From: Alphaproteobacteria bacterium
GTDB lineage: Bacteria; Pseudomonadota; Alphaproteobacteria; Rs-D84
DNA length: 64,000 nt
NCBI GenBank assembly: GCA_017463185.1
Contig: JAFTPS010000013.1
Location: 3,826 to 67,825 of the forward strand
Direction of reading: 5' to 3'
Of this stretch, positions 5,613 through 39,122 are shown piece after piece. The position numbers and the translations under genes were made by a program. The notes beneath the pieces were generated by a model. That model saw nothing but the letters and a program-made list of their open reading frames with translations. It was not told the DNA's origin and did not search any database. The stretch's first letter is position 1. The number at the start of each line of letters is the position of its first letter.

Positions 5613-6620
5613 ATGGCGCACCAGTTTTATTTTAATCCGTATATCTTGGATAACTTGCCTGCGCCAAGTTCGGGGTTTGATGTTGTTCAGGATATGTCTG
5701 AGCCGCGGTTGCGTATGTATATTACCAGTCGTGGGGTTAAAACTTTCTTTGTGCGCAAACGTGTTCATGGCAAAGATAAGCGCATTTTAATTGGCAACTA
5801 TCCTGATATGGATATAGAGGATGCGCGCAGTGCGGTTCCCACACTGTTGCAGGATGCGATGAAAAAGCCACCCGTGCGTCGTAAAAAAATTACATTTAAA
5901 AAATTTCTGGATTTATATTTAACGAATCGGGTTCGCCGGGGCGAGGATTCTCATACCAAACTGGTGCGGGCAATCAATCGTCATTTGTCTGATTTGTTTG
6001 AAAAAAATATTTGTGAAATATCAGCAACTGATATTCAAAATGTGATTTCACAAATTGGTGGGCCAGCCATTGCAGCGCGTATGCAGGAATTATTGCAGAG
6101 TATTTTTAACTATGCGATAGAAACTGGGTATGTGAAAAAAAATCCAACCGCCAATATTCAAAAGGTTCCACAAAATCGCCGTGTGCGTCCATTAAATCGT
6201 GCGGGCTTGCATCGCTTGATTGCAGCCATAGACCAATATCCAGACCAGACATTGCGGGCGGCATTCTTTATGTTGATTTATGGTTTTGTGCCGCGCTCAA
6301 AAGTTTTTTCTATGGCGTGGGAAGATTTAGATTTTAATCACGATATGTGGTTGGGGCGACCTTTGTCGGACCGTGCCATTGTTTTGTTGCAGGATTTACC
6401 CCAGGATGGACATTGGGTTTTCCCGGGACGGGGCGGTATGCATTTGATGGACCCGCGTACAGCCTGGCGACGCGTTGCGGTGGCGGCTGGGATTCCGGGA
6501 TTGACAATGGATGATGTGTATAAATTCCTGATGCGTCAGTTGGTTTGGGCGTCCGACCGCGAGGATTTTCGTGCAAATATAAATTCATTGTTGGATGATA
6601 TATTTTCCCAAAACATATAA
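5613..6620 (+). CDS. Tyrosine-recombinase (phage integrase)-like protein, catalytic motifs degenerate
   Basis: The N-terminus (LRMYITSRGVKTFFVRKRVHGKDKRILIGNYPDMDIEDARS) looks like a P4-type integrase arm-binding domain. The C-terminal domain keeps box I (YGFVPRSKVFSMAWEDLDF) but has LTMDDVYKFL where HxLR is expected, and no terminal Tyr motif. Confidence 0.6.
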   Translation: MAHQFYFNPYILDNLPAPSSGFDVVQDMSEPRLRMYITSRGVKTFFVRKRVHGKDKRILIGNYPDMDIEDARSAVPTLLQDAMKKPPVRRKKITFKKFLDLYLTNRVRRGEDSHTKLVRAINRHLSDLFEKNICEISATDIQNVISQIGGPAIAARMQELLQSIFNYAIETGYVKKNPTANIQKVPQNRRVRPLNRAGLHRLIAAIDQYPDQTLRAAFFMLIYGFVPRSKVFSMAWEDLDFNHDMWLGRPLSDRAIVLLQDLPQDGHWVFPGRGGMHLMDPRTAWRRVAVAAGIPGLTMDDVYKFLMRQLVWASDREDFRANINSLLDDIFSQNI

Positions 6621-10059: not shown

Positions 10060-10136
<77 letters not shown>

Positions 10137-32546: not shown

Positions 32547-32549
32547 TAA

Positions 32550-32578
32550 AAATCCCGCCAACGGCGGGATTTTTTTTA
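32550..32578 (+). terminator. Strong rho-independent terminator directly after rpsK
   Basis: aaaaATCCCGCCaacGGCGGGATtttttttt. Confidence 0.9.
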
Positions 32579-32810: not shown

Positions 32811-32837
32811 GAAAATCCCGCCATTGGCGGGATTTTT
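32811..32837 (-). terminator. Terminator of the Cys-rich operon (hairpin identical to 9738-9767)
   Basis: ATCCCGCCattGGCGGGAT just beyond the stop at 32840, with A and T runs on both sides. Confidence 0.75.
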
Positions 32838-32839
32838 GA

Positions 32840-35800
32840 TTATTTACATTTCCCGGCAACGACCTGGACATTTACACGGCGACAGCTTTCGTCGTTTGGT
32901 TGCGGATAGGTTGCCTTTGGACATTCGGTCTCGCCCGCGCCACTGGTTTGTATATTGGCGGCAGGGATGGTGTTATTCTTGATCAATACATTTTTGACTG
33001 CATTGGCACGGGCCAGGGACAGACGGGGGTTGTTCCAGGTGCTGTCCTCTTTGAATTGTGTACGGTCGGTATGTCCCGTGATTTTAACACAATAGTCGTT
33101 ATTCTTTAACAAATCGCTTTGTTCCGACAATTTGTTATTAAAGTCATCTAAGAATGCTTCGGCTTTGTTGTTGCTTATCTTTGCGCTGCCACTGGCAAAA
33201 GTCGTGTCGGCCTTGATATTAATTTCAGCAATAACATCGTCTTTGGTAAGTATAGTGGCGATTTCTTCACACGTGCCGTTGTTATCCAAATCCTGATATC
33301 CGGTTTTGCAGACGCATTTATTATCTTTGATTTCTTTGTTTTCAGCGGTACTGCAAACACATTGTGCATTATCTTCAGTAAAGCCGTTGTTATAATCACA
33401 GTCGCAAATATTTTGACTGTCCGCCACCGCATATTGCGCACAGGTACAATCGGCACTGGTTGGATTTTTGACCAGGCCCGTATAGTTGCATTCTTGGGCT
33501 TTTTCAATGCATTGGCCATTGGACTTTACGCGTGGAGGCGTGCATTCACAGGCATCTTTATTTATGTTTACCGTGTATCCATTGGTACAATCCACACAAC
33601 CCTGTTCCATATTGAAATATGCATTTTCGTTTGTGCAAGTACAGTTTGGTGCGGTGCCAGACCCCGTTGTACCAGTAAACTCAGAACACTTTTTCACGGG
33701 CAGGCTGCGCTGTTCCTGTTCAACCTGTTGGAAAATTTGTTTCAATGGTTCGTATTTTGCCAGAATTTCATCTGTTTTATCTTGTTTGTTTTTTCCGGAA
33801 TTGATGGCCAGGTTTCCCGCCAAAGACGCAACCGCGCCTGTACCCGCAATGATTAAACCGGTCTTTTTCTTGTCCGCGGTGTCGGCCTTTTGTTGTGCCC
33901 AAGCCACCGCGTCCGCCGATGTTTCATCCGACAGTGCGCGTGCCAATGATGTGTATGCACCACCCGTTTTTCCGGTCGCGATATCGTCATAAAGACCGGT
34001 TTGTGTTTTGTCAAATACTACCTCGGATTCAATGCCGGGGCGCATATCCAGTGCCGTTTTGCGAATTTTCAAATCGGATGCCAATTGTAGATATTCGGCG
34101 TATAATGGTGTCAGTTCATTGCCACCCGGTAATTCAACCGCCATTTCACCGCCAACAATGTTTTTCCCCCCACCATAGTTGCAATGCATTGTGGCCAGGT
34201 ATGCTTTCATATCTTGTTCGGCATCTTCGTCGGCGGATTGTTCGGCGGACGCGGACATAGTCTGCATCAAACCAATACCGGTTGCGCCCATTCCAACCGC
34301 ACCCAATAATTTATTTTCGGTGGATTGTTCCTTGTCCTTCATTTTTTGGGCGTTTTCACGTAATTCGGCAATTTGTTTTTCCGAATCTTCTTTGGATAAT
34401 TTAGCCTTAGGATTCTCGGTGCATGATTTTTTATCATCGCTGACGCTGTACCCGCTTTTGCATTCATCAATTATGCAGACTTCTGAATTGGATGCGGTGT
34501 CAAATTCACGATGTGCCTTTTTGGCGTTTTCCGGTTTGTCAGCGCAGTCGCCCCCAATAGAAATACATGCGCCTTTTGATACCTCAAAACCACTGGCACA
34601 GGCGGTGGCATAACATTTACCTTTCTTTAATTCACCGGCGGTGGCGTTTTCAATTGCCTTTACCTGGGATTCAGAGCAGGGACCTTCGCTGACCTCGCAC
34701 TTGGTGCCGTTATTATCAGGCAAGTATCCGTCATTACACTTTTTAATTACGCAGGTCAGTTTATTATTGACCATTTCGTATTTAGCCGTTTTGACATTTG
34801 GGTCATCGTGGGTGCATGTTTCGCCCGATAACTTTTCACATTTGTTTGTGGTTTCGTTTAATTTATAATTATCGGCACATTTGGTAATTTTGCAATATGT
34901 TTTGCCGTTATCACCGCAGGCCTTGGTTGCGGCAACTGCATTCTTGGGCAGTTTGGGTTTTGTGTTGCTTGTGCAGGCTGTGTCGGTAATTGTCACACAT
35001 TTGCCAGATTTAACTTCGTAGCCGCATTTACATTCGGTTGCGATACATTGTTCTTTTTCATCAATCCCGGTTTCCACCGCATTTGGATGCTGCTTTTGTT
35101 GGTCTGCGGTACAGGATTTTAATTTTTCAATACATGCATCGCCATTTTCGTCTGGTTTCCAGCCTTCTTTACATTCCAGTACACGACAGGCCTCGTATTG
35201 GCCATTGCAATAGCGTTGGGTTTTTGTTGCGTGTTCTGGAACACTGATGCATTTTGTTCCCTTGTTGCATATACCATTTTTTAGGTCGTATCCACATTCG
35301 CATGCACTGGCAACACATTTTGTTTGTTCGCCAACCATTTGCCAGGTGGCAGCGGTTGCGTTGCTTGGTTTTTGATTACTGGTTATACAGTTCCGACCAA
35401 TATTGCTGGCTGTGATATTGACTTCATTAAGTGTTATGACAGTTGGTTTTAATTTAATTGATAATTTTGTGCTGGGGGATACAGTTGTAGTTTCATAACC
35501 CATATAGGATATTGTTATTTGCTGGTCCGCGGGGAAGTTATCCATTTTGAAAAAGCCGTTTACATCGGTGGTAGTGCCTATCTCCGTTGTTTTTTCCGGA
35601 ATAACGTGTGCACCGATAACTGGTTCACTGTTTTCGTCCAAGATAGTACCCGAAATAGTCATTGTTTCGGCAGATGTCGCCGTGTTGGCCGCATTTATAG
35701 TTGCAGAATTATTTTGACCAAATATTTGTTTGCACGCTTGGTCAATCCACTGTGTTTTTTCAGCTTCTGATACGTCTAATATTAACGTGTGGATATCATT

Positions 35801-36136
35801 ATTCTTTGCATCACATGCAATTTGCCCGTATGCGGTGGCAAAATCATTCCGTCGTTGTTCTGTAATCAGTACATCCATCGCACAGGGGGCGCAATTTTCG
35901 GGCAAATCACCAACACTACATGTATATGATTCATAGTTACATGTAAATTTATGTTGTTCTGTAAACGGTTTATTAAATTCTGCACGCAGTGGTGTTTTGC
36001 AAGAATCAGGCAGTTTGCTGTACTTAAAGGCGAGAAATCCATCTGTCTGTCTATTTTTTACACATTCGTCTGTATACGCCATTGCGGGCAGGGTAGTAAT
36101 ACCGAATATTGAAAAGAAAACTAATAATTTTTTCAT
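32840..36136 (-). CDS. 1098-aa secreted mosaic protein: CarboxypepD_reg-like domain, EGF-like Cys repeats, glycine zippers, C-terminal OmpA-like peptidoglycan-binding domain
   Basis: Signal peptide MKKLLVFFSIFGITTLPAMA. ISGTILDENSEPVIGAHV...GFFKMDNFP...ISYMGYET (aa 161-232). At least 9 CxCxxG(Y/F/W)x4-8C units. FASGSAKIS...ITGHTDRT...NPRLSLARANAV...CRRVNVQV is OmpA_C-like. I hand-counted about 63 Cys. Confidence 0.75.
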   Translation of the reverse strand: MKKLLVFFSIFGITTLPAMAYTDECVKNRQTDGFLAFKYSKLPDSCKTPLRAEFNKPFTEQHKFTCNYESYTCSVGDLPENCAPCAMDVLITEQRRNDFATAYGQIACDAKNNDIHTLILDVSEAEKTQWIDQACKQIFGQNNSATINAANTATSAETMTISGTILDENSEPVIGAHVIPEKTTEIGTTTDVNGFFKMDNFPADQQITISYMGYETTTVSPSTKLSIKLKPTVITLNEVNITASNIGRNCITSNQKPSNATAATWQMVGEQTKCVASACECGYDLKNGICNKGTKCISVPEHATKTQRYCNGQYEACRVLECKEGWKPDENGDACIEKLKSCTADQQKQHPNAVETGIDEKEQCIATECKCGYEVKSGKCVTITDTACTSNTKPKLPKNAVAATKACGDNGKTYCKITKCADNYKLNETTNKCEKLSGETCTHDDPNVKTAKYEMVNNKLTCVIKKCNDGYLPDNNGTKCEVSEGPCSESQVKAIENATAGELKKGKCYATACASGFEVSKGACISIGGDCADKPENAKKAHREFDTASNSEVCIIDECKSGYSVSDDKKSCTENPKAKLSKEDSEKQIAELRENAQKMKDKEQSTENKLLGAVGMGATGIGLMQTMSASAEQSADEDAEQDMKAYLATMHCNYGGGKNIVGGEMAVELPGGNELTPLYAEYLQLASDLKIRKTALDMRPGIESEVVFDKTQTGLYDDIATGKTGGAYTSLARALSDETSADAVAWAQQKADTADKKKTGLIIAGTGAVASLAGNLAINSGKNKQDKTDEILAKYEPLKQIFQQVEQEQRSLPVKKCSEFTGTTGSGTAPNCTCTNENAYFNMEQGCVDCTNGYTVNINKDACECTPPRVKSNGQCIEKAQECNYTGLVKNPTSADCTCAQYAVADSQNICDCDYNNGFTEDNAQCVCSTAENKEIKDNKCVCKTGYQDLDNNGTCEEIATILTKDDVIAEINIKADTTFASGSAKISNNKAEAFLDDFNNKLSEQSDLLKNNDYCVKITGHTDRTQFKEDSTWNNPRLSLARANAVKNVLIKNNTIPAANIQTSGAGETECPKATYPQPNDESCRRVNVQVVAGKCK

Positions 36137-36166: not shown

Positions 36167-38065
36167 TTATCGTGTCCCCAGTGTGCGTGACCCCAGGTTG
36201 AAACTTGTGCCACCTGTTCCACCCAAACCAGACGATGGTTTTAATGTCGTGTTTAGCTTCAAGGTGCATTTACCATCTTTGTATTCTTGTGTTTGTGGGT
36301 CGCATTCACATAACATTGTTTTATTATTCCATTTACCGCCATTTGTACAGTCACAGGTATAAACATTCCATATCCCCTTAGCAAGTTCACAAGCAGTCTT
36401 TTGGGAACTGATATCTGCTGGTTTTTCACCATCGGCATATTCTTTACAGGTTTGTGTCCAATCGTCCCAACGGGCATTATCACCGCATTGTGGGTCTTTG
36501 CAAATGCCGTCTTCCCATTTGCCTTTGGCTTTTTTGCAATTTTTCTGGGCGGTTTTATCATCGGGACGGTCGGATGAATCATTGTCTGTACCCCCCCCTG
36601 AATCCTTTGATTTTACGCATTTATTTTTTGTGTTATCCCATGTTTTGTTGTTGTCACATTGTGCGCCAGTACATGTGTTAGTGGCAGAATCCCATGTTCC
36701 CTTTGCTTTTTCGCAACGCTTTTGGGCCTTGTCTGGTTTGTTATCGTCTTCGTCGTCATCGTCGGCGTTTTGGTCACTATCGTTGCCACTTGCGTCGGAT
36801 GCGCCGTCGCCATAGTTTTCATCATATTCTTTTTCGGCTTTTTTCAGGGCCTTTTCAGCCTTTTGACGGTCCAGTGCGCGGTCTATTGCGCCCGATGTTA
36901 TCGCGCCCACGCCCATACCAACACCGGAACCCAACATTGCCGATGATGCCGCCGTCTGGGACCGGGTCAGACGATATGCGTTTTCTTTGAATGTTGTTAC
37001 ATCTATGCCAAACCAATTTTGGGTGCAATCAAATGTTGAACCGGCGTATGCTTTCTTGGATGCAAACAGTGTGTTATCATCGCCAGCATAGAAATTCACA
37101 GTGTATACGCAATCCAGTGTACGTTCATCAAACGTTGCCCCCAGGCGTTGGCAGACCGATGCCATTTTATCGCGCAATTCATACAGGCGTTTTTCATCGG
37201 CTGCGACCTGTTTTTCCGCATCCAGGCGCAGTGTGCCAAACACATTCATTGTACGTGCGGCCAGGCCACTGTCTTGTTCGCGACAATCGTTGGCAATTTT
37301 TTTACATTTTTCAATTGCTGCATCGCCCGCCTTTTTCCCCAGGCATTTTGAAAATGTTGTACCACATTCGGTGACGATACAATCGTTATAATTATTTCCA
37401 CAATCAACAATTGCGTTATATGCGGAAATTTTTGCATTCATATCGCGGTCAGCCTTGATTTCCGCTGCAAAAATCGCGTATTCGTGCCCAGTACAGGTTA
37501 AATCACGACGGCACGCATCCATTTTTGTGCCCCACATAGTATCGGTATCGCCCGCGCATTTTGAAAAATCGTTTCCACATTTTGATTTCATACATGCACG
37601 CAACCCGGAATCACAGGAATTTGCGCCAGCGGCCACGGTTGATTTTTTTGCCGCGTCTGTTATGGATTGGGCATCCAATGCTGCACGCTGATTTCGTACC
37701 ATTTCGGCCAGGGAACTGGCCCCACCGTCCGTTCCCGATGATGTTGTTTTATCCAGAACGGTATCAAATTGGTCGGTTTTATCCTCTATTATAACTTCTT
37801 CGGCAACTTCTGTTTCCTCAACCTCTGGTTCGGTGGTGGTTGTCGTTGTTGTGGATGCAGATGTGTTATTGTTTGCCTTGTTCGTGGTGGTCATTGTTGG
37901 CATACGCGATGCGGCGGATGTATTGCCACGCGATACGGCAACGCGCCCACGCTGGGCCACAGCGGCATCAGATGTGCCGATACAAATCGTCCACACCAGG
38001 CCACAAATGGCAATGCGGGCGCAACTAAATAAAACTTTGTTAAAAAATGTTTCTGGTCTGGTCAT
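36167..38065 (-). CDS. 632-aa secreted Cys-rich protein with T/N/E-rich linker, glycine zipper and three C-terminal Cys/Trp repeats
   Basis: Signal-like N-terminus ending SDA|AVAQ. Cys domain at aa 150-245 is paralogous to the 296-aa neighbour. AMLGSGVGMGVGAITSGAI. Three CxKAKGxW...C...C...W...C repeats. Confidence 0.7.
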   Translation of the reverse strand: MTRPETFFNKVLFSCARIAICGLVWTICIGTSDAAVAQRGRVAVSRGNTSAASRMPTMTTTNKANNNTSASTTTTTTTEPEVEETEVAEEVIIEDKTDQFDTVLDKTTSSGTDGGASSLAEMVRNQRAALDAQSITDAAKKSTVAAGANSCDSGLRACMKSKCGNDFSKCAGDTDTMWGTKMDACRRDLTCTGHEYAIFAAEIKADRDMNAKISAYNAIVDCGNNYNDCIVTECGTTFSKCLGKKAGDAAIEKCKKIANDCREQDSGLAARTMNVFGTLRLDAEKQVAADEKRLYELRDKMASVCQRLGATFDERTLDCVYTVNFYAGDDNTLFASKKAYAGSTFDCTQNWFGIDVTTFKENAYRLTRSQTAASSAMLGSGVGMGVGAITSGAIDRALDRQKAEKALKKAEKEYDENYGDGASDASGNDSDQNADDDDEDDNKPDKAQKRCEKAKGTWDSATNTCTGAQCDNNKTWDNTKNKCVKSKDSGGGTDNDSSDRPDDKTAQKNCKKAKGKWEDGICKDPQCGDNARWDDWTQTCKEYADGEKPADISSQKTACELAKGIWNVYTCDCTNGGKWNNKTMLCECDPQTQEYKDGKCTLKLNTTLKPSSGLGGTGGTSFNLGSRTLGTR

Positions 38066-38087
38066 AGTGGTTCATATGCCTTTTGTA

Positions 38088-38978
38088 TTATTTAATTGTT
38101 CCGCAGGCAACTTCATAGAATTTGCACAGCAGTATTGCCATTGATTTTTCAGCCTCAAACCCGGGGGCGCATTTGTTTATCATATTGCTTTCGCATACGG
38201 TTTCAACGCATGCGTCGCGCGTGCCATTGTCCGCACAGCCCGATTTGATGTCGGCCAATTTCTTGTCACGGGCGGATTTGTATGACGCTGCCAGGTTGGT
38301 GATGTTAGCCTCTGCATTCTTTATTGCGTTATCGCGGTCGGTTGATAATTTTGTACGAATATCCGCCAGGTACGCATCGCACCCCGTGGCGGCAACACTG
38401 CATTCAGCAAAGAATTTATCAAAATCCGCGTTTTCACCGCACGCACGATAATCGCCGGTACATTTATTATCCTTTATCAGGCAAGATTTAACCTCTGACT
38501 GACAGGCGGATTGGGTTTTTGCCTTTTTCGCGGCCTTGGCCAAATTGGCCATTTCTGCCGATATCCCGGCGGCCTTGCATGATTGTTCAATCAAACTGTC
38601 GTATGTTTCGGATACATCGTCTGCGGTACAACCTGTGACCTTTTTAATACATTGTGCGGTTGCCCACGCATAGCGTTCGCCTGGGTCATCGGGTGCCTTT
38701 TTTAAATCCTTGGCTGAAATGTTATATTTCGCAGACGAGCCAACGGATACACTGCGCATACCGTTATCGGTTGGCGGTGTGCCCGCGCCGGATGTGCCGC
38801 AATACTGGCACCGGGCGGCCGGATTTGTTGATACGTTTATCGCACACGCAGAATCCAGGCATCGTGTCAAATTTGCGCGTGAACATGTCGCTGCCGCCTG
38901 GGCCGTAGCCACGCAAAGCGTCAACAGCAAAGCCATAAAGGCGGTTTTGCAATCAAAATGTAGTTTTGTGTTTTTCAT
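38088..38978 (-). CDS. 296-aa secreted Cys-rich protein (first gene of the operon)
   Basis: Signal peptide ...LLLTLCVATAQA. About 20 Cys in the mature part. Domain at aa 158-272 is paralogous to aa 150-245 of the next gene. Confidence 0.7.
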   Translation of the reverse strand: MKNTKLHFDCKTAFMALLLTLCVATAQAAATCSRANLTRCLDSACAINVSTNPAARCQYCGTSGAGTPPTDNGMRSVSVGSSAKYNISAKDLKKAPDDPGERYAWATAQCIKKVTGCTADDVSETYDSLIEQSCKAAGISAEMANLAKAAKKAKTQSACQSEVKSCLIKDNKCTGDYRACGENADFDKFFAECSVAATGCDAYLADIRTKLSTDRDNAIKNAEANITNLAASYKSARDKKLADIKSGCADNGTRDACVETVCESNMINKCAPGFEAEKSMAILLCKFYEVACGTIK

Positions 38979-38995
38979 ATTCTCTCTTGTGCCTG

Positions 38996-39024
38996 ATTAT
39001 ATCAAAAAAGCAAATGCAGCGCAA
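38996..39024 (-). promoter_or_regulatory. Candidate promoter of the Cys-rich operon (TTGCGC-17-TATAAT with extended -10 TG)
   Basis: Minus strand ttgcgc at 39024-39019 and tgatataat ending at 38996. Implies a very short leader. Confidence 0.4.
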
Positions 39025-39060
39025 AGGAAAAACAGAACAACAAAAATTTTTATCAAATGA

Positions 39061-39089
39061 TTGACAAATGACAAAAGTTTGTCTATATT
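39061..39089 (+). promoter_or_regulatory. Sigma70 promoter (TTGACA-17-TATATT)
   Basis: ttgaca at 39061-39066, tatatt at 39084-39089, upstream of 39123. Confidence 0.6.
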
Positions 39090-39122
39090 AAAGACATAAA
39101 ACCAATAAAAAGGATTATAAAA

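Follow-up and report, generated by a model that had tools for sequence, protein, structure and literature searches.

Two adjacent genes on the reverse strand of a 64,000-nucleotide (nt) stretch of DNA from an Alphaproteobacteria bacterium of the Rs-D84 lineage (assembly GCA_017463185.1, contig JAFTPS010000013.1; the whole stretch is called the window) encode Cys-rich proteins of 296 and 632 amino acids (aa), here named A and B. A preliminary description of the window, made from the sequence alone, had proposed that both contain a Cys domain of about 100 aa, a candidate new domain family. The question raised by this locus is whether the Cys of two proteins of such different length mark a domain of common descent, and what such a domain might do for the cell. 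The sequence evidence makes it very probable that the domain is homologous in A and B and that it belongs to a new family.

Homology of the Cys-rich regions of A and B

The similarity of A and B was not detected by BLASTP, in which the best co-linear piece had an E value of 0.2 (not significant), and was marginal in a Smith-Waterman residue-shuffle test (p ~0.007 for the domain segments, z ~3.7 at full length). Profile-profile alignment with hhalign, in contrast, was significant and co-linear, and its score climbed with profile depth. Profiles of close homologues aligned A 150-217 to B 142-209 (P 4e-4, probability 35%). After addition of divergent A members the alignment ran from A 151-292 to B 143-261 (P 1.2e-4, 55%), and after addition of five divergent B orthologues the full-length comparison covered A 153-296 and B 145-265 (P 4.3e-5, 70%). 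The domain-only comparison, over 117 columns, gave P 7.9e-7 and 92%. The divergent A members came from an exhaustive HMMER search and the divergent B orthologues from genes beside divergent A genes. In the full-length alignment, the 12 Cys of the A domain pair with the 12 Cys of B, and D214-R215-D216 of A pairs with D206-R207-D208 of B.

Since Cys-rich profiles can mislead, empirical nulls were built by column shuffling. When all columns of the B profile were shuffled, the score was 12.4 +/- 2.4, compared with an observed score of 38.4, which none of 100 shuffles reached. When the Cys columns were kept fixed and only the non-Cys columns were shuffled, the null rose to 14.6 +/- 3.3 (z 7.2), again with 0 of 100 shuffles at the observed score; earlier shuffle nulls for the same pair had given 0 of 150. 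A score 7 standard deviations above the Cys-fixed null indicates that the non-Cys columns contribute, namely G-x-D-[FYW], R-D and hydrophobic positions. When a hidden Markov model (HMM) of the A domain was compared with all 560 open reading frames (ORFs) of the window, B was the only other match (E 4.8e-4; next 0.63). Plain HMMER also crossed between the families for divergent members, with up to 24 bits.

Several results weigh against common descent and would fit convergence, i.e., unrelated Cys-rich secreted proteins with similar Cys spacing and composition and no common domain. Besides the BLASTP result, there is the exhaustive HMMER search: queried with the close A alignment, 1.84e9 representatives yielded A-type proteins only, with no B and no other architecture. 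The A–B link is therefore visible only by profile-profile methods or with deep profiles, and the A family as such is narrow. The hhalign probabilities are poorly calibrated for short Cys-rich profiles, which can inflate profile scores, and the second six-Cys block of A was not significant when compared alone with module 2 of B (P 0.026) or with module 1 of A (P 0.18). Convergence is nevertheless very improbable, as the excess over the Cys-fixed null, the growth of the score with profile depth and the cross-family HMMER matches all argue against it. Several divergent A members show the C-x6-C-x4-C spacing of B, the order of helices is the same in the AlphaFold2 (AF2) models of A and B, and the two genes are always adjacent, as tandem duplication would give. 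At the level of sequence profiles, A and B are paralogous in one region through common ancestry. The proposal of a common Cys domain was borne out in this way by profile-profile alignment and empirical nulls; the alignment test suggested for it failed in its pairwise form but succeeded with profiles.

Anatomy of the domain and of the proteins that carry it

The unit of the domain is a module of ~48 aa with six Cys, C-x6-C-x4/6-C-G-x-D-[FYW]-x2-C-x12-14-C-x5-6-C, whose HMM consensus is SENACDNEIRSCMTTRCGADFSKCEEDADFDRAFSACSVEATGCDGFES. The 12-Cys domain consists of two six-Cys blocks joined by a long helix bearing a conserved R-D, and its last Cys is C292 in A and C261 in B (Table 1). The linker helix is ~26 residues longer in A than in B. 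R215 is invariant in the close A alignment; in the deep B alignment, D206 is invariant and R207 and D208 are at least 90% conserved.

The peptides quoted in the preliminary description are present, at positions right to within one residue, and the span that it gave, 37331..38507, is bounded by the end of the codon for B aa 245 and the start of that for A aa 158. These limits were too short, as the domain continues for ~20 aa more at its end (A 157-294, B 149-266) and holds 12 Cys, not 10. All 12 Cys are in register, with spacings that are x4 or x6 at one position. The R-D of the reported DRD(N/M) motif is common at the family level, but D214 is variable in A.

Table 1. Coordinates of the A-B-C cluster and of the parts of the 12-Cys domain in the window
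Feature	Coordinates	Strand	Description
Gene A	38088..38978	-	296-aa secreted Cys-rich protein, 20 conserved Cys; ORF call
Gene B	36167..38065	-	632 aa; ORF call
Gene C	32840..36136	-	1,098 aa, third gene of the cluster; ORF call, Pfam and NCBIfam
A–upstream intergenic region	38979..39122		144 nt, divergent; separates A from the 238-aa gene on the + strand
Hairpin	32811..32837		Perfect 12-bp GC-rich stem, 3 nt past the C stop codon
A 12-Cys domain	38097..38510	-	aa 157-294: module 1, long linker helix, degenerate module 2; hhalign
A module 1	38370..38510	-	aa 157-203: C159-x6-C166-x6-C173-x6-C180-x12-C193-x6-C200, core CTGDYRAC; module HMM 52 bits
A linker helix	38244..38369	-	aa 204-245, conserved R215-D216 (the DRDN of the preliminary description)
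A second block	38097..38243	-	aa 246-294: C248-x8-C257-x4-C262-x7-C270-x14-C285-x6-C292; positional equivalent of B module 2, divergent
B module 1	37478..37621	-	aa 149-196: C151-x6-C158-x4-C163-x6-C170-x14-C185-x5-C191, core CGNDFSKC; module HMM 53 bits
B linker helix	37409..37477	-	aa 197-219, D206-R207-D208 invariant or nearly so
B module 2	37268..37408	-	aa 220-266: C222-x6-C229-x4-C234-x6-C241-x12-C254-x6-C261, core CGTTFSKC; module HMM 52 bits

Compared singly by hhalign, module 1 of A matched both module 1 of B (P 7.2e-8, 95%) and module 2 of B (P 9.3e-7, 91%). The two modules of B matched each other with P 5.6e-6 (86%); with shallower profiles, 1 of 150 shuffles reached the score. As judged from these profiles, the two modules of B stem from an internal duplication. 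The six Cys of the second block of A are in register with C222..C261 of B in the full-domain alignment, but since this block was not significant alone against either module, an internal duplication in A is not demonstrated.

The AF2 model of A is all-alpha, with a predicted local distance difference test score (pLDDT) of ~90 or more over aa 156-296 and helices at 156-167, 183-196, 201-250, 252-265, 275-284 and 287-295. When placed in the aligned register, the A and B models correspond helix by helix in their DSSP assignments. This agreement is weakened by the low confidence of the model of the B core, whose pLDDT was 55 overall and only 66-84 in the domain.

No Pfam-A or NCBIfam family was found over the Cys domain of A or B by hmmscan at the gathering threshold. 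No Pfam family was common to 42 A-family members or to 21 B-family members, except OmpA in two fusions. The search for a match among PDB sequences gave none, and that for a fold gave no convincing one. The proposal of a new family stands, as no existing Pfam family was matched by hmmscan. The six-Cys module family is solidly supported as a previously undescribed, lineage-restricted Cys-rich domain, predicted to be all-alpha.

As read directly from the sequence, A, B and C all start with Sec-type signal sequences. In A, the signal peptide (~aa 1-28, ...LTLCVATAQA/AATCS) is followed by an N-terminal 8-Cys region (aa 29-140) and then by the C-terminal 12-Cys domain. In B, a signal or anchor peptide, a Thr/Glu-rich spacer, the 12-Cys domain and a coiled coil with beta-hairpins make up the N-terminal part; a Gly-zipper-like segment (~aa 377-395), an acidic spacer and three Cys/Trp repeats of a different kind follow. 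The conserved core in the B-family alignment is ~aa 94-410. The three C-terminal repeats (36260-36715, - strand; B aa ~450-600) have the pattern C-x4-G-x-W-x5-6-C-x3-C-x5-W-x7-C and no Pfam match.

Protein C starts with a signal peptide and has a CarboxypepD_reg-like domain at aa 160-245. It also contains numerous short Cys repeats and Gly-zipper-like segments, and its C-terminal part (aa 979-1082) is an OmpA-like domain that binds peptidoglycan (Pfam PF00691, 54 bits vs a cut-off of 27.2). The PF00691 threshold was not reached by A or by the B of the window. The repeats of C are ~22 aa long and follow the pattern C-x3-C-x2-G-[YFW]-x5-8-C, in ~8 or more copies (32840-36136), with no Pfam match. 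Scans with the module and domain HMMs did not find the six-Cys module in C or in the 238-aa and 1,297-aa proteins encoded upstream of A.

Families, hosts and neighbouring genes

The A family comprises at least 712 clusters at 90% identity, all unnamed or hypothetical, and at 50% identity it has just 66 representatives among 1.84e9 proteins; the B family has more than 1,030 clusters at 90% identity and no Pfam family. Among GTDB species-representative genomes, members of the A family were confirmed at 241 stretches, almost all of them in gut or rumen metagenome-assembled genomes (MAGs) labelled Alphaproteobacteria bacterium or Candidatus Enterousia, and the divergent A members come from other MAGs labelled Alphaproteobacteria or Rickettsiales bacterium. 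The range of the module is limited to Alphaproteobacteria of the Candidatus Enterousia/Rs-D84 type, which are gut-associated and have reduced genomes. These bacteria are described as having genomes of <1 Mb that lack the tricarboxylic acid (TCA) cycle, standard transporters and respiratory chains and still carry genes for peptidoglycan and rod shape; their predicted lifestyle is that of partner-dependent obligate symbionts or parasites (PMC12306168). The literature on Enterousia and Rs-D84 consists of general genomic descriptions in which these proteins are not mentioned.

Gene linkage was counted in 80 fetched Enterousia loci, with five divergent loci counted apart. B directly follows A in 78 of the 80, and the two exceptions stop at a contig edge. 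A B-family gene also follows A in all five divergent loci, with a 4-bp overlap in three of them, and C-type modules follow B in most loci where the sequence continues. Fusions join the same partners within single proteins: two of the 21 B-family members scanned are B-OmpA fusions (best E 1.2e-16), and so is the gene downstream of A in locus L084. In P0221, B is fused to C-type modules plus OmpA, and in P0209 to CarboxypepD_reg.

Matches of the module HMM in the fetched loci revealed a third family, D (~945 aa, 38 Cys), with a shorter paralogue, D2, which counts as a fourth; both are large secreted Cys-rich proteins with at least two copies of the module. D or D2 occurs in 39 of the 80 loci at variable positions, in many genomes near the A-B-C cluster (e.g., L027:13568-16402), and no D gene lies within the window. 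Locus L083 has three tandem ~715-aa paralogues upstream of A (L083:1479-7965). D contains at least two modules by profile comparison (P 1e-7, 94%, and P 6e-6, 85%). Module 1 of A matched the D-family modules with P 1.2e-7 (94%), and whole-domain hhalign comparisons with D gave 88% for A and 81% for B. The family has at least 1,156 clusters, all hypothetical, and a Pfam scan found no domain in D-type proteins.

The N-terminal region of A also resembles D. The motif CSRANLTRCLDSACAIN..ARCQYCG (aa 29-58, 38805-38894) recalls C-x6-C-M-D-x-F-C..R-C-x-C near the N terminus of D (L027 D aa 117-150), a likeness that is suggestive by eye and weak by profile (P 0.005), and there is a further alignment with D at A aa 99-134 (59%). 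Possibly, A is a condensed form of a unit that D repeats. Gly-zipper-like segments are common to B (aa 377-395, ~36880-36937, - strand), C (aa ~612-630 and ~775-795) and D-type proteins (L083:1479-3617, aa 648-698); Pfam Gly-zipper_OmpA was matched only in one of the L083 paralogues (u1), below threshold at 23.9 bits. Their recurrence suggests membrane-embedded or oligomerising segments. An Arg/Ser/Ala-rich stretch follows the signal peptide in B (aa ~33-58, window 37990-38065; AAVAQRGRVAVSRG...RMPT) and in D-type proteins (AARAASRGNARSSG), and may be a sorting or anchoring motif.

In the window, the gap between A and B is 22 nt and that between B and C 30 nt. The region upstream of A is presumed to hold the promoter of A-B-C, and weak sigma-70-like matches were seen there on both strands, which are consensus matches only and not evidence of function. 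The hairpin behind C is likely to be the terminator of the transcription unit. It is nearly identical to a second 12-bp-stem hairpin at 32548-32574, 236 nt away, both having the form AAAATCCCGCCA(AC/TT)GGCGGGATTTT. The second hairpin closes the + strand operon of ribosomal proteins S13 and S11, and the one behind C closes the - strand cluster; as the ends of two facing operons, they look like convergent terminators with a common sequence.

On the other side of the cluster, the 238-aa gene (39123-39839, + strand), which encodes PTKPTKP repeats, precedes the 1,297-aa gene (39794-43687, + strand; likely start 39959, 1,242 aa), whose product has a weak ankyrin-like N terminus and no other Pfam match. 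Both are divergent from A. The larger gene is kept upstream of A in this orientation in 75 of the 80 loci, and the smaller was detected in 45. Elsewhere in the window, an integrase-like ORF (5613-6620; Arm-DNA-bind_3 and Phage_int_M) lies a few kb from tRNA-Pro (10060-10136), and a choloylglycine (bile-salt) hydrolase family gene (46646-47725), which fits a gut habitat, adjoins tRNA-Gln. The remainder is housekeeping: LepA, FabF, MltG/YceG, EF-G, EF-Tu, ribosomal proteins, SecY and glycosyltransferases.

Proposed role and comparison with known systems

The Sec-type signal peptides of the module proteins suggest that the domain folds after export from the cytoplasm. It lacks any catalytic signature, and a structural or protein-protein interaction unit is most likely. 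In the mechanism that we propose, the 12 near-invariant Cys would pair into six disulfides, fixing short helices in a rigid scaffold, and the domain would serve an envelope complex as a structural or interacting part. A, as a soluble protein, would dock on the paralogous domain of B, and B would be tethered to peptidoglycan via C in trans or via an OmpA domain in cis. This disulfide-scaffold and envelope-complex mechanism is tentative, and we hold it with clearly less than even confidence. The explanation as a whole, from homology through to an envelope scaffold, is the best available and somewhat probable.

The full set of 12 Cys is present in 226 of 230 unique A domains and in every one of 173 unique B domains. 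This near-absolute conservation, the even number of Cys, the signal peptides and one paired loss are indirect signs of disulfides. The sole clean natural variant, one sequence, has lost C166 and C193 together, so that C166 and C193 are probably one disulfide pair. Against the disulfide scaffold, this hint comes from a single sequence, the only informative one for mapping by correlated loss, as Cys are almost never lost. No Dsb or thioredoxin gene was found in the window, which covers ~7% of the genome and is uninformative in this respect. The host type is a strict anaerobe reported to be without respiratory chains (PMC12306168), which would make DsbB-type re-oxidation difficult. The compartment, the binding of A to B and the structural role are inferred.

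The same observations would suit a homologous domain in which the Cys bind metal (Zn or Fe-S), forming a periplasmic or secreted metallo- or redox module: absolute conservation of Cys fits metal ligation equally well, and the fermentative, anaerobic host lineage (PMC12306168) and the lack of a Dsb gene in the window also favour it. Metal binding is still distinctly unlikely. The spacings (i, i+7 on helices and a C-x6-C loop) differ from those of classical zinc-finger or Fe-S motifs, the A and B alignments show no conserved His that could act as a partner, and no Pfam metal-binding family was matched. Judging by the signal peptides, the chain is exported unfolded through Sec; AF2 predicts the A domain with confidence in the absence of any cofactor, and the loss of exactly two Cys together is what is expected of a disulfide pair. 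Another reading keeps the disulfide-rich homologous domain and places the proteins at the surface or outside the cell, as adhesins or effectors for attachment to partner cells or for nutrient acquisition from them; they might then act by saposin-like interaction with lipids or membranes instead of as an internal envelope scaffold. This reading is unlikely.

The module defines ~3,000 or more protein clusters (A, B and D at 90% identity), all now labelled hypothetical, in a widespread uncultured lineage of the gut and rumen. With genomes of <1 Mb, the lineage is likely to depend on each gene that it has kept. Giving the domain a named model would annotate these proteins and flag a conserved A-B-C envelope cluster linked to peptidoglycan. 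A itself, being small and confidently predicted, offers a handle on how probable obligate symbionts build their surface.

Among known systems, the module is reminiscent of CHCH-type twin Cx9C and Cx3C proteins, in which short helices likewise bear Cys in pairs, set at a fixed helical spacing (here i, i+7) and presumably bonded as disulfides, to give a small cofactor-free structural unit outside the cytoplasm. It differs in having six Cys instead of four, in Cx6C and Cx4C instead of Cx9C or Cx3C spacings and in an additional C-G-x-D-[FYW]-x2-C loop. It is also bacterial and Sec-exported, whereas CHCH proteins reside in the mitochondrial intermembrane space. No Pfam CHCH match was found in A, in B or in the 42 A-family members, and the twin-Cx9C pattern is absent. 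Saposin-like proteins (SAPLIP: saposins, granulysin and NK-lysin) are counted among the closest known systems as well. The module may be a new small disulfide-rich helical fold.

YiaD-type Gly-zipper/OmpA-like lipoproteins and OmpA C-terminal proteins resemble the partners and context of the domain: an OmpA-like domain closes C and some orthologues of B, and B, C and D have Gly-zipper-like segments. The NCBIfam YiaD match in C covers the OmpA part only (45 vs a cut-off of 175 bits), and the Cys domain is without a counterpart in these proteins.

The chlamydial OmcA/OmcB complex, which is thought to give a disulfide cross-linked envelope, is comparable by analogy only, in that a partner-dependent bacterium with a reduced genome encodes secreted, Cys-rich proteins of the envelope in neighbouring genes. 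There is no sequence relationship (no Chlam_OMP6 or other Pfam match), OmcB is beta-rich whereas the module domain is all-alpha, and Enterousia, in contrast, retains peptidoglycan genes. By this analogy, A, B and D, together with OmpA-anchored C, might use an unrelated all-alpha module to build an envelope lattice or an attachment structure that is specific to the lineage and cross-linked by disulfides, a speculation to which we give a low probability. If true, such a structure would be functionally analogous to the chlamydial Cys-rich outer-membrane complex and would underpin the epibiotic or parasitic lifestyle of Rs-D84 and Candidatus Enterousia in animal guts.

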